Below, one piece after another: positions 9,001 to 15,000 of a stretch of 64,000 bases of DNA. The position numbers are program-made. The DNA comes from a plasmid: assembly GCF_057098645.1 (NCBI RefSeq), contig NZ_JBXSPU010000002.1, one strand, 5' to 3'. Each line of letters starts with the position of its first letter. Within the stretch, counting starts at the first letter, position 1.

Positions 9001-12000
9001 TACGAATCGCCCGCTGACGGACTTCGGGGGAAAAACGAGTATTTTTAGTCATCCTGTTTACCTCTTTCTCAGGGAGTTTAGTCTCCAGGATTTCCGGGGC
9101 GGTTCAGGTATCCTGAAATAGCCCGCTGCACGGAGCGGGAGTTTGCGACCATTCTTGCCGGTATCAGCGCCGGCGGCATGTACTGCCCGGAGTGTGGCAC
9201 GGTTCACTGGCCGGACGGAGTCCCCCCGCCCTTCTGATGCTTCCCCGTTTTGCCGACATTTTTCAGCAGGGAAACCGCTGGCTTAACTGGCTGGAGAAAC
9301 AACCGGAAGGTTCTGTGCGTCCGGTGGTCATTGAGTCGGTGACAAAAATCATGGCATGCGGAACCACGCTGATGGGGTACACACAGTGGTGCTGTTCATC
9401 TCCGGACTGTTGCCACACAAAAAAGGTCTGCTTCCGGTGTAAAAGTCGCTCCTGCCCGCACTGCGGAGTGAAGGCTGGCGCACAGTGGATACAGTATCTG
9501 CTGAGTCTGGTTCCCGACTGTCCGTGGCAGCATATTGTGTTCACACTTCCCTGCCAGTACTGGTCCCTGGTGTTCCACAACCGGTGGTTACTGGCAGAGA
9601 TGAGCCGCATTGCTGCGGATGTGATACAGGAAATCTGCCGCCAGGCAGATGTGGTGCCGGGGATATTCACGGTGATCCACACATGGGGACGTGACCAGCA
9701 GTGGCATCCGCACATTCACCTGTCGACAACGACCGGCGGCGTGACATCAGACCACACCTGGAAAAACCTTCATTTTTACGCCCGTAAGGTGATGAGTATG
9801 TGGCGTTACCGGATAACGCAGTTACTGTCACGGAAATATCCGGACCTGGTGATACCGGATGCGCTGGCAGCAGAAGGAAGCAGTAAACGGGACTGGAATC
9901 GCTTCCTGGACAGTCATTACCGGCGGGGCTGGAATGTCAACGTATCCCGGGTGATGGATAACGCCACACATGTGGCGGTGTACTTCGGCTCTTACCTGAA
10001 AAAACCGCCGGTGCCGATGAGCCGTCTGGAGCACTATGCTGGTCAGGATGAAATTGGTCTGCGTTACAACAGTCACCGGACAAAACGGGAAGAATACCTG
10101 GTGATGAGTGGTGATGAGTTTATGGAAAGGTTCTCCTGGCATGTGGCGGATAAGGGGGTTCCGTGGGAATTTCTGCGATAACACCCGCTAAGCGATTCCT
10201 CCCTGACGGAAATCACTTGTTTTCCGTCAGGTCCTGCAGTTGAAGAAAATTGAATCCATAAATCTGTGATTTTTTGCGTGACAAACCCTGTCGGAATGAG
10301 AAACTGTACGGAAACTTCAATTTTAAGGTTTGTCGTACATGTTGATTGGTTATATGCGGGTATCAAGCAATGATGAACGTCAGTCAGTTTCTTTGCAGCG
10401 TGATGCGTTGATTGCTGCTGGAGTGGATCCCCGGCATTTACATCAGGATCATGCTTCAGGTGCTCGTGATAATCGCCCGGGACTTAAGTCCTGTCTCGCT
10501 GAACTTCGCGAAGGTGATGTACTGATAGTCTGGAAACTGGATCGACTTGGTCGTTCACTCTCACATTTGCTCCGAATTATTGAAGACCTGAAAATTCGTG
10601 GTATTGCTTTCCGATCATTGACTGAATCTATTGATACAACAACGCCACACGGCTCGTTCCTCTTTAACCTTTTTGGCACGCTCGCGGAGTACGAAAGAAC
10701 ACTTATCACAGAACGCGTTAATGCTGGTCTGGCTGCTGCTCTCCGGCGGGGGAGAAAAGGCGGAAGGCCACCGGCGATAGATGCTGAAAAGGTTGATCAA
10801 ATCCTCGCAGCTCTGGAAGGAGGTGCCAGTAAAGCGTCAGTATGTCGCGCATTCAGTGTGCCACGCTCAACGCTCACCGATACTCTACGACGAATTGGCT
10901 GGGCCGGACCTGGGGGGCGTAATCTGACAACGGATCAGAGCAATGTCATTTCTCGACTCTAAATCGTACGATACGCTTTTTGGATTACCTGAACTTTATG
11001 AGGATGCACTTCCCCGGTTTTCGCTCTCCTGCGAGGATATTGCATTCGCCAGAACTCATCGTCGATCTCATAACCGTCTGGGTTTTGCCATTCAGCTTGC
11101 ACTTGTCCGTGATCTCGGTCGTACACTGCGTGCAGGAGAGATTCCCCCGGAGGCTGTTATCACCGTTGTTGCGGAACAACTGGATATTGACCCTGCTGTT
11201 TTTACACTTTACGCACAACGTGAGGAAACCCGCCGGGAACATGCCCGCGAAATAGTTTCGGCTTTGGAGCTTCGTTCCGTCCGGAGTAGCGATTACAGAA
11301 TGCTCATTATCGCGGCTACACGCGAAGCAGCAACCACCGAAAAAGGACTGCCGATCACCAGAGCAGTTATCAATAAGCTGAAGGACCAGAAGTTACTTGC
11401 CCCTGCTCCGGCACAACTCATCCGTCTGGCAATGGCGGGCCGGGCGGCTGCCCGTCGCCTTTCTTATCGGGAACTCATCAGGGATCTGAAACCTTCATCC
11501 ATTAGCGCTCTCGAGCAGTTGCTTACCGAACGAGTCGGAGAAAAGAGCATTTTAGGCTGGATAGCTGAAGCGCCGGAAGGCGTGAAACTCAAGAATCTTA
11601 AGGGGTTAATTGCCAGGCTGGAGGTATTACGAACAGCGGCAATCTCCGATGAGCAACGTAAACGGATTCATGTAAACCGTTACGGTATTATTGCCCGGGA
11701 TTCTCGCGTTTTACATGCGCGTGAAATACAACGAATGGCATCCGAACGCTGTCATGCCACGCTGGTAGCCTTTGTTATTGAAAAGCAGGCAGCAATTACA
11801 GATCTGGCAATTGATATGTTCTGCAAATTGATTGGCAGCACGAGGCGCAGAGCAGAGATAAGCCAGAAAGAGCGTCGTCTGAAAGCCGCTGAAGTACTTG
11901 AAGTCGTAGCTCAGGATCATATTAAGTTGGGACGGGCTCTCCTGGCAGCACGTGACGGTAATACTGATATTGAATCTGTAATAACAGCATCACTCGGCTG

Positions 12001-15000
12001 GGAAGGTTTGATTGCCAGTATGGAGGCTGCAGCTTCGGTGGCATCTTCCCATCACTGTTCTGAACTGGATGAACTTATCGGACGACAAAAATCATTACGT
12101 AAGCTTGGACGACTCATTTTCAGCGCTTTTTCTTTCAGAGCTTTTCGCCCGGATGATAGCGTTTTGTTGGCGATTGGGTATTTGCAGGCGTTCTATCATG
12201 GCCGAAAATTACCCAAACAAATTCCGCTCGATTTTATGTCCCATAAATGGCGACGTCGTGTCATCCATGGAGAAAATACCGATCTGCAGGCGTGGGAAGT
12301 CGCCGTATTCGTTCATTTGCGGGAACGCCTGAAAACAGGTGACATATGGGTTGATGGTAGTCGGGCCTGGCGTAGTTTTGAGGACTACCTTCTTCCTCAC
12401 CATGTTTTCGGGCAGATGCGGGCAGAATCCCGGCTGGGACTTGCCATTCCGGACAACTTTGCTGAATGGCGGGCTGAGCGAACCACCACACTCAACGCAA
12501 AACTGAAAGCGCTGGCAAAAGCTGCTTCGGAGAATGCCATACCCGATGCAGAACTTTCCAGCAGAGGGTTGTCTGTGTCTCCGATTCGCGAAGAAGAGAG
12601 CGACAAAATTAAGGCTCTCAGCCGTAAACTCTACATGCTGGTACCACGCATCAGAATTACCAGTTTGCTGGCAGAAGTTCATAGCTGGACCAGTTTTCTT
12701 GATTGTTTCACCCATTATCGCACCGGGGAACAGGCGGAAGATGAAGCTGCACTTATGGCTGCGATCCTTGCCGATGCGACGAATGCGGGAGCAGAACGGA
12801 TGGCGCAGAGTTCCCGGGGTGTCACCATTCACCAGATGATGGTAATGATGGATCGTCATTTACGCACTGAAACCTATGCGTCTGCCACATCAGTTCTGGT
12901 CGATGCGCAACAGGAACATCCTTTTGCTGCTATATGGGGGGATGGGCATGTGTCATCCTCGGACGGGCAGTTTTTTCCTGCGGGTGGACGAGGAGAAGCC
13001 AGCCTCGAATATAACGCCAAATACGGCAAACGACCTGGCGCGTCGATTTATGGTTTTTTATCGAACCGTTTTGCATCCTTTTTTTCCAGAATGATTCAGG
13101 CCTCTGAAAGCGAGGCTCCCTACGTACTTGACGGCTTACTTCATAACGAAAGTTCTGTGGTAATTCATGAGCATGCCACCGATACAGCCGGTGCGACTGA
13201 AACAACATTTTCAATGTTTCACTCTTTTGGTTACAGACTCATACCCCGTATTCGCAACCTCGGCAGTCGCAGGTTGTACGTTATTTCCCCCTCAGAGGAA
13301 TATAAACCACTTGATGCCCTGATCGCCGGAAAGGCCAAAATGGAAGTAATAGAACAGCACTGGGATGAAGTTCTGCGGCTTAAGGCCTCGATCGGCGCTG
13401 GTCTGGTACCACCATCGGTAATACTGAAAAAGCTGGCAGCATCTCCGAGACAAAACAGGCTCAATCTGGCCCTGCGTGAAATGGGACGTATTGAACGCTC
13501 AATTTTTATCTGTGACTGGTTGCTTGACACTCGGTTACGTCGCAGATCACACGCAATCCTCAACAAAGGCGAAAGCCGCCATGCACTTGCCCGCGCTATT
13601 TTTCTTCACCAACTGGGCGAATTCCGGAACAGGGCTGCCGAGACAATGGCTCACAGGGCATCGGGCCTCAACCTTGTTGTTAATGCAATAATTCTGTGGA
13701 ACACGGTCTATCTCAGTCGGGCTGTTGATTACATTCGCAGCCAGGGGATCATTATACCGGAAGAGCTCTTGTCCAGTGTATCACCACTACCATGGGGTCA
13801 TATCTCGCTCACTGGAGATTACCTGTGGAACGAAATTGACCATCCCCTTGAACGATACAGGCCACTTCGTACTAATCGCTTCAATCCAAAGAACTTCACT
13901 TTTCCTTAGCGTGTGTTATCGCAGAAATGCCCACGGAACCCCTATGAGCGCAAAAGGTTGCTGCTACGATAATGCCTGCGTGGAAAGCTTCTTTCATTCG
14001 CTGAAAGTGGAATGTATCCATGGAGAACACTTTATCAGCCGGGAAATAATGCGGGCAACGGTATTTAATTATATCGAATGTGATTACAATCGGTGGCGGC
14101 GGCACAGTTGGTGTGGCGGCCTCAGTCCGGAACAATTTGAAAACAAGAACCTCGCTTAGGCCTGTGTCCATATTACGTGGGTAGGATCACAGAGGCAGTT
14201 CCAGTGTTAACATGAACCGCCGTATGCGGAGCCGCATGTACGGTGGTGTGATAGAACCACGGCAGCCTGGCGGCTGCAAATTGAAAACCGCCCCGGTTCG
14301 TCCTGTTGTTGCCGCACGCCCCGCAGAATATGTATGCTCTGAGGACCTGTTTTATTAAGGACTCATCCCCTTATGTTGACCCGCAAAAGTATCGATACAG
14401 TTCTGCTCTCTGTTGGTGCTGAGAAGCTCTCACAACGAGAATGGGACTGGATGAAAATGCTCAAACCCATGGACCCACCACCTGCGATGGTGACGACCTC
14501 CATCCTGAAGCGCCGTGGCGATACAGCAGCCCTTACCCTGCTACAGGATACCGGGGTTTAATCCATCCTCATGTTGTCCGGTTTTACTCCCCGCCCTCTG
14601 AAACGTCTGTTCACAGCCAACCAGTGCTGGACGTCCTTCCTGGATGCGGGCGGTCTGCGCGATATCGAGGTTGAAGCCGTCACCAAAATGCTGGCCTGCG
14701 GCACACGGATACTGGGTGTAAAAGAGTTCGGGTGTGATAACCCGGACTGTCAGCACGTAAAGTACCTGACCAACTCATGCGGCAGCCGTGCCTGCCCGTC
14801 CTGCGGAAAGAAGGCCACAGACCTGTGGACAGCAACACAGCTGAATCGTCTTCCTGACTGCGACTGGGTACATCTGGTCTTCACCCTGCCGGACACGCTG
14901 TGGCCGGTGTTCGAAAGCAACCGCTGGCTGCTGAATGACGTGTGCCGTCTGGCGGTGGAGAATCTGCTGTTAGCGCCAGTGATATAAGACGGTAATTCAC

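Follow-up and report, generated by a model that had tools for sequence, protein, structure and literature searches.

Tn3 and Tn1000 (gamma-delta) have 38-bp terminal inverted repeats (IRs) that begin with GGGG, a large DDE transposase and a serine resolvase with an upstream res site, insert into AT-rich 5-bp targets and form cointegrates; another transposon of the family, Tn5403, is 3,663 bp long. Here we analyze a Tn3-family element of 3,788 bp located at positions 10155-13942 of a 64,000-nucleotide stretch of plasmid DNA (NCBI RefSeq assembly GCF_057098645.1, contig NZ_JBXSPU010000002.1), which we refer to as the window. The element joins a fragment of an IS91-family insertion sequence (IS) on its left to a fragment of IS3 on its right and is not flanked by a target duplication. 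Very probably the transposon has undergone a secondary rearrangement, by one route or another, that accounts for the missing duplication, with nothing unusual about the element itself.

Among cryptic Tn3-family transposons, Tn5403 of Klebsiella (Rinkel et al. 1994, cited in PMC5142620) has been placed in the Tn163 subgroup (supplement of PMC7157771). It resembles the element in the window in having no passenger genes, only tnpR, tnpA, res (res-like in the window) and IRs, in generating 5-bp duplications and in residing on enterobacterial plasmids, and its copies have served as crossover points at which plasmid segments were swapped (PMC5142620). We set the two apart from database matches: no Klebsiella or other record matches the element over its full length above 84% identity, and identity with Tn5403 is therefore not supported. 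Tn3 and Tn1000 share with the element the 38-bp IRs beginning with GGGG, the large DDE transposase, the serine resolvase with an upstream res (a plausible one in the window) and AT-rich 5-bp targets, and presumably the cointegrate-forming mode of replicative transposition, but their tnpR and tnpA are divergent whereas here they are co-directional, and the element carries neither bla nor any other cargo. Megablast detected no DNA similarity between it and Tn3 or Tn1000.

Intramolecular replicative transposition is known to generate deletions without abutted duplications, and copies of the Tn3-family transposon Tn4401 lacking 5-bp duplications have been described after such events (PMC4471558). 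As in the window, the rearrangements of Tn4401 in pKPC-727 and the IS26 adjacent deletions left no abutted duplications, with one flank kept and the other new, and the deletion products were likewise recognizable only against an undeleted relative (He et al. 2015, PMC4471558). The Tn4401 case differs in being an inversion with two copies and both matching 5-bp sequences visible, whereas here there is one copy in 64 kb and the partner is missing. Tn3-derived inverted-repeat miniature elements (TIMEs; PMC4133298) are resembled by a 394-bp derivative of the present element, which occurs in pECOED and at least five other plasmids.

The right junction is shared and the left junction is unique

The preliminary description of this locus had placed 38-bp IRs matching at 36 of 38 positions at the ends of 10155-13942, with a truncated IS91-type transposase gene to the left, a 3' fragment of IS3 to the right and flanking pentamers that differ (ATAAG and TATGA), and all of these features were confirmed by re-reading. 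On the right, positions 13943-14189 (+ strand) correspond to IS3 nt 1012-1258, comprising the 3' end of orfB (Pfam rve_2/rve_3) and the right end of IS3. The fragment is identical to IS3B of K-12 MG1655 at 246 of 247 positions and ends ...GGGTAGGATCA, the right terminal repeat included. The pentamer TATGA is native to IS3 (nt 1012-1016), which reads GGAAGTATGAGCGC in uninterrupted form. On the left, the internal IS91-family fragment (9107-10154, + strand) has Pfam matches to Zn_Tnp_IS91 (5.8e-19) and Y2_Tnp (4.9e-33). Its gene, intact homologues of which are annotated as IS91 family transposase, is cut after ~306 of 395 codons, and the Y2_Tnp match breaks off at profile position 167 of 183. 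The fragment is collinear with pO145-12581 (L005, 9727-10774; 98.9% identical), and ATAAG forms its last 5 bp. The other side of the fragment is truncated by a complete IS3-family insertion sequence of 1,311 bp (7797-9107, - strand; orfA/orfB with Pfam HTH_Tnp_1, HTH_21 and rve), which we take to be IS629/IS1203-like and which is 96-98% identical to IS3-family copies of pO145 and pZ1323HEC0399-3. Nor is a matching duplication hidden at the ends of the transposon: when both junctions were read again with the ends shifted by a base, ATAAG and TATGA still gave no match.

The junction between the right IR (IRR) and TATGA-IS3 was found base for base in five database plasmids, namely pKKo009_1, pCAU16175_2, pZ1323HEC0399-2, pZ1323HEC0422-2 and pRHB14-C07_2 (L001, L002, L004, L010 and L013). 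The left flanks of these five all differ (TGTAA, TTTTA, TATTG, TTTAA and TTGTT), ATAAG of the window being a sixth. The junction of IS91 with the left IR (IRL) seen in the window was found neither in PLSDB plasmids nor in 5,426 complete E. coli genomes. Since the right junction is common to five plasmids and the left one unique to the window, the comparison indicates that the right junction was inherited and that the left junction is a secondary event.

The preliminary description had also suggested a search for the reciprocal junction, which gave nothing. Synthetic queries were made for IS3...TATGA|IRL (IS3 ...GGAAGTATGA followed by IRL) and for IRR|ATAAG-IS91 (IRR followed by ATAAGGGGTTCCGTATGG), and neither form was found in the window, in the 5,426 E. 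coli genomes or in PLSDB; matches with 50% coverage were limited to the 394-bp mini element and unrelated IS91::IS3 insertions. Within the window, the relative of IS3 (93%) at ~18078-19335 and the second IS91 copy at ~30300-30863 are both intact at the relevant sites.

Other copies of the transposon make target duplications

Full-length 3,788-bp copies at least 99.9% identical to the element lie on plasmids of E. coli and Salmonella (all 30 among the matches listed), and 63 PLSDB records contain at least 80% of it. Proteins exactly matching its TnpA are recorded on 238 contigs, and 419 contigs carry its exact TnpR. Identical copies occur on up to six plasmids of one strain among the matches listed, usually with one copy per replicon even where many plasmids of a cell carry the element. 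It is a common cryptic transposon of enterobacterial plasmids. Its annotation names are generic ("Tn3 family transposase", "recombinase family protein"; PGAP, UniRef), no curated name was found, and literature searches with the IR sequence and length gave nothing. The nearest full-length relative in megablast is 83.7% identical and lies on an Enterobacter plasmid.

Both junctions were taken from 20 full-length copies, that of the window included. Clean target duplications flank eight of them, seven of 5 bp (TATTA, GTAAT, ATATA, AAGAA, TTTGA, TATAA and AGATA) and one of 6 bp, mostly in small mobilizable (Mob) plasmids or at simple insertions into traI, yagA or an IS. The 6-bp direct repeat, TATAAA, flanks the copy in yagA (L019, NZ_CP148341.1). 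The remaining 12 copies have unmatched flanks and are nearly all on large F-type plasmids. A missing duplication is therefore the majority state for this element on large plasmids and is not remarkable; hybrid flanks are its usual condition on large F-type plasmids, have textbook explanations and make the present locus an ordinary finding. Identical copies elsewhere have clean target duplications, including copies whose tnpA DNA is 100% identical to that of the window, indicating that the element normally makes them. It is also not part of a larger transposon: the unit is inserted alone, with a duplication, in small Mob plasmids, traI, yagA, trbL-adjacent DNA and an IS. The 3,788-bp unit is therefore itself the mobile unit, an autonomous one that behaves as a normal member of the Tn3 family.

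Origin of the left junction

A sibling pair of plasmids provides a view of rearrangement at the same locus. pZ1323HEC0422-2 is equivalent to pZ1323HEC0399-2 minus 2,028 bp directly abutting IRL, with 100% identity on both sides. IRL and the end of the deletion (TTTAA|CACTTCG...) are dissimilar, and there is no microhomology. From these sequences the deletion is recognizable as a classical adjacent deletion by intramolecular replicative transposition of this element at this locus, and the pair represents a clean natural example of Tn3-family adjacent deletion. The records (L004, NZ_CP148350.1, versus L010, NZ_CP148340.1) are from related Korean human isolates, and the deleted DNA comprised a major facilitator superfamily (MFS) transporter gene and part of a ferric-reductase gene.

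For the window itself, the explanation we favor, at about an even chance, is replicative transposition without resolution that connected the left end to ATAAG in IS91, in the simplest case as an adjacent deletion. The element would once have inserted at TATGA (IS3 nt 1012-1016), so that the right junction would be the old insertion junction, inherited with a ~35 kb segment of a perC/autotransporter/toxB IncFII-type plasmid. Later, replicative transposition with no ensuing resolution would have connected the left end to a new target, ATAAG, inside the IS91-family element of a pO157-like plasmid segment. This could most simply have taken place intramolecularly, within an already fused plasmid, with loss of all DNA from the old left flank up to the new target and one transposon copy left in place; an intermolecular cointegrate that stayed unresolved and subsequently lost the second copy may have led to the same junction. 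ATAAG and TATGA would then be halves of two different target duplications. An intramolecular deletion would explain why there is only one copy, why the right junction was kept, why no reciprocal junction is found and why five G are present at the left end. The junction consists of ATAAG and a full IRL (five G), as transposition into ATAAG predicts, whereas a deletion through short homology predicts four G. If the reciprocal product was a circle that has since been lost, no reciprocal junction would be expected. The hybrid make-up of the window, the absence from it of genes found left of the transposon in pZ1323HEC0399-2 and the published precedent (PMC4471558) likewise speak for this origin. 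We infer this origin for the left junction of the window from direct observations, namely the anatomy of the locus, the conservation of its right junction, the uniqueness of its left junction and the sibling deletion. The last three, together with the clean duplications elsewhere, also support the suggestion in the preliminary description that a later deletion or inter-element recombination removed an original flank, to which we add that it is the left junction that is secondary and that the mechanism was probably transposon-driven.

Several observations weigh against this origin. The comparison with related plasmids, which had been proposed as a way to find the ancestral arrangement, yielded the right junction in five plasmids and the sibling deletion but not the exact ancestor: no plasmid with an intact IS91 to the left of the same transposon copy was found in the database comparison. 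In pKKo009_1, IS91, 1.49 kb of other DNA, the transposon and the IS3 fragment do follow one another in the required order and orientation, but this plasmid was rejected as a direct ancestor because its IS91 is only 97.8% identical, has a 10-bp deletion without counterpart in the window and gives the wrong G count. Tn3-family target immunity should disfavor transposition into the element's own replicon. The target also lies beside a 10-nt mimic of the IRL terminus, which this explanation has to treat as coincidental; were targets chosen uniformly, the odds would be roughly 1 in 10^4-10^5. Finally, the copies are 100% identical, leaving no internal polymorphism able to rule out exchange between them.

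Reassorted flanks are visible among other copies. L007 and L013 have a common left junction and different right flanks, L007 and L008 have a common right junction and different left flanks, and L023, L024 and L025 combine one common left junction with three different right flanks. Exchange between copies, whether RecA-dependent or catalyzed by resolvase at res, would be expected to produce such a pattern, and adjacent deletion and inter-copy exchange evidently both operate on the element. It is possible, if clearly less probable than unresolved transposition, that the window arose in this manner, from exchange between two resident copies: one inserted at ATAAG in a pO157-like IS91 and the other the IRR|TATGA-IS3 copy of a perC/toxB plasmid. 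RecA-dependent recombination over the 3.8-kb identity, or TnpR acting on two res sites, would have fused the replicons or swapped their parts. Partners are available, given the identical copies on as many as six plasmids of one strain among the matches listed; the position of the element coincides exactly with a hybrid plasmid's seam; and homologous exchange between plasmids at copies of Tn5403 provides a documented precedent (PMC5142620). However, exchange needs an extra prior insertion event, its required parent (ATAAG|Tn|ATAAG) or reciprocal product (IRR|ATAAG-IS91) was not found in the complete E. coli genomes, PLSDB or the window, and it leaves the coincidence with the IR mimic equally unexplained. 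Recombination between the transposon copies of pZ1323HEC0399-3 and pZ1323HEC0399-2 was considered specifically and rejected, as it would split the IS629-like element at 8008, which is intact in the window.

The mimic concerns the IS91 breakpoint itself. Native IS91 of pO145-12581 continues past the breakpoint as ...GGCGGATAAGGGGTTCCGTATGG and carries at the breakpoint the sequence GGGGTTCCGT, which is identical to the first 10 nt of IRL and codes for ...DKGFRMV... in IS91-family transposase genes. The window junction is one base out of register with the mimic, having five G instead of four. Outside the two ends of the transposon, GGGGTTCCGT has one further occurrence in the 64-kb window, in another IS91 copy. 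The sites with the mimic are at 10145-10170 and ~30474 (minus strand) of the window, 10765-10795 of L005 and 5029-5050 of L001. An apparent 10-bp tandem duplication (GGTGATGAGT) in the IS91 fragment of the window was considered and set aside; it is the normal allele, and the deletion belongs to pKKo009_1.

These observations raise the alternative of a RecA-independent deletion through short homology between GGGGTTCCGT of IS91 and IRL nt 1-10, in an ancestor resembling pKKo009_1. Native IS91 reads GGATAAGGGGTTCCGTATGG exactly at the breakpoint, and pKKo009_1 has the two sequences as direct repeats (TAAGGGGTTCCGT, 13 nt) separated by 1,493 bp, followed downstream by the same junction with IS3. 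The 10-mer is rare in the window, making chance placement of a transposition junction there unlikely, and the 394-bp mini derivative did arise by an internal deletion in which the two halves overlap by 5 nt. Even so, we regard this alternative as unlikely. An in-register deletion predicts four G after ATAA and the window has five, a homopolymer sequencing error being improbable where the window is 100% identical to its relatives over 4.8 kb; pKKo009_1 carries a different IS91 allele (97.8% identical, with the 10-bp deletion); and the sibling deletion abutting IRL occurred without microhomology. We are more doubtful still that IR-like sequences guide where the end of the element joins, through a preference of the transposase for mimics of its terminus or through a hybrid of transposase and short-homology joining. 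If this were true, plasmid fusions and deletions driven by Tn3-family transposons would preferentially involve IS91-family elements, all of which encode the motif. A general preference for IR-like targets was looked for by eye at three clean sites, which match at no more than 5 of 10 positions and are too few to conclude from.

An assembly artefact, in which a 3.8-kb repeat present on several replicons was bridged wrongly and the flanks of two copies mixed, is highly improbable: strains do often carry identical copies on several plasmids and no database record contains a match to the IS91|IRL junction, but many other repeated ISs are crossed without a break in the window, 11 independent finished database plasmids have hybrid flanks, and on the right the hybrid structure remains coherent over more than 35 kb.

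Structure of the transposon

Judged from its sequence, the element conforms to the structural definition of the Tn3 family (IRs, TnpA and TnpR), with a plausible res, and is a complete and probably active copy. IRL (10155-10192, + strand) reads GGGGTTCCGTGGGAATTTCTGCGATAACACCCGCTAAG, and its inverted partner IRR is at 13905-13942 (- strand). Both begin with GGGG, and their two differences, at positions 14 and 31, are constant across all copies; the IRL sequence is the same in all canonical copies of the database comparison. No further copy of either IR end is present in the 64-kb window, where the chance expectation is also zero matches.

As first described, the element consists only of tnpR, tnpA and a res-like region between its IRs. 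tnpR (10339-10962, + strand) encodes an intact serine resolvase of 207 aa with Pfam matches to Resolvase (5.9e-43) and HTH_7. The co-directional tnpA (10943-13909, + strand) encodes an intact Tn3-family DDE transposase of 988 aa, in which the DDE_Tnp_Tn3 match (1.5e-134) covers positions 2-389 of the 389-position profile and DUF4158 (1.3e-41) is at the N-terminus; its stop codon is inside IRR. Upstream of tnpR is a non-coding region of 146 bp (10193-10338, + strand), placed as res is in Tn3-family elements. It contains a 30-bp palindrome at 10202-10231 with TGACGGAA half-sites as well as further TGTCGGAA, TGTACGGAA and GTTTGTC motifs, TGWCGGAA and GTTTGTC being repeated, and we call it res-like on the basis of its position, motifs and palindrome. 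No passenger gene was found between the IRs, nor anything else of plausible coding value.

The transposon lies on a seam of a hybrid plasmid

Comparison of the whole window with related plasmids indicates that it is part of a hybrid virulence plasmid, in which a pO157-like ecf/etp/stcE backbone is combined with a perABC/autotransporter/toxB/IncFII segment of ~35 kb. The hybrid segments are 1-9106, 10154-45913, 45909-47220 and 49526-64000. Positions 1-9106 contain the ecf operon (deacetylase, glycosyltransferase, cptA and lpxM) and those from 49526 onward etp/stcE; both match pO157-like plasmids such as pZ1323HEC0399-3 at 99.9-100%, and the ecf and etp parts are inverted relative to that plasmid. 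Positions 10154-45913 are collinear with pZ1323HEC0399-2 (record 36477 -> 1227), IS insertions apart, and include the IS3 fragment, IS91-like copies, the autotransporter, perABC, toxB and the IncFII replicon region. The window lacks the MFS transporter, ferric reductase, par, umuDC and tra genes that pZ1323HEC0399-2 carries on the left side of the transposon. The transposon is located exactly on one seam of the hybrid, which it marks, and the other seams are at IS629-like copies. For following the perC/autotransporter/toxB IncFII segment from plasmid to plasmid, the conserved IRR|TATGA-IS3 junction can serve as a marker.

Relative to pZ1323HEC0399-2, the window has an extra IS21-family element of 2.1 kb at 14971-17097, with istA and istB open reading frames at 15069-16241 and 16238-17038, and the window also contains a complete relative of IS3 at ~18078-19335 that is only 93% identical to IS3.

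Derivatives, remnants and neighboring genes

The 394-bp mini derivative, which is not present in the window, is found at 1506-1899 of L018 (pECOED, NC_011754.1) and also on CP075654, CP060058, CP060062, CP116070 and CP145705. It is made up of IRL, the res-like region and IRR, with nt 1-186 of the element joined to nt 3576-3788. It is similar to a TIME or a miniature inverted-repeat transposable element (MITE). The terminus of its IRR carries a mutation (CGCC), and the flanks on its two sides do not match. A homologue of IRL and the res-like region (220 bp, ~85%) lies upstream of a ParA-family gene at 1075-1282 of L017 (pD90-3, IncX1/IncN), with an inverted 84-bp IRR-like fragment close by at 2461-2544. 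Such homology occurs in dozens of 20-60-kb plasmids of E. coli, Salmonella and Klebsiella, typically at two places per plasmid. The homologue may be what is left of a related element, or a resolution site that has been co-opted.

In pCV839-06-p2 (L016, 1462-4283) and in other plasmids of enterotoxigenic E. coli (ETEC), the same IS91-family element is interrupted by a complete IS3, inserted ~116 bp upstream from ATAAG. IS91 and IS3 are recurrently associated on ETEC plasmids, independent of the transposon.

In several plasmids a RelE/ParE-RHH or YacAB toxin-antitoxin pair is located directly outside IRL (L001 5888-6447, L007 4341-4900, L013 6337-6896 and L002 4135-4682). The junction of L001 is 17 bp nearer to the toxin-antitoxin pair than those of L007 and L013, and the IRL of the latter two carries a T5C change.

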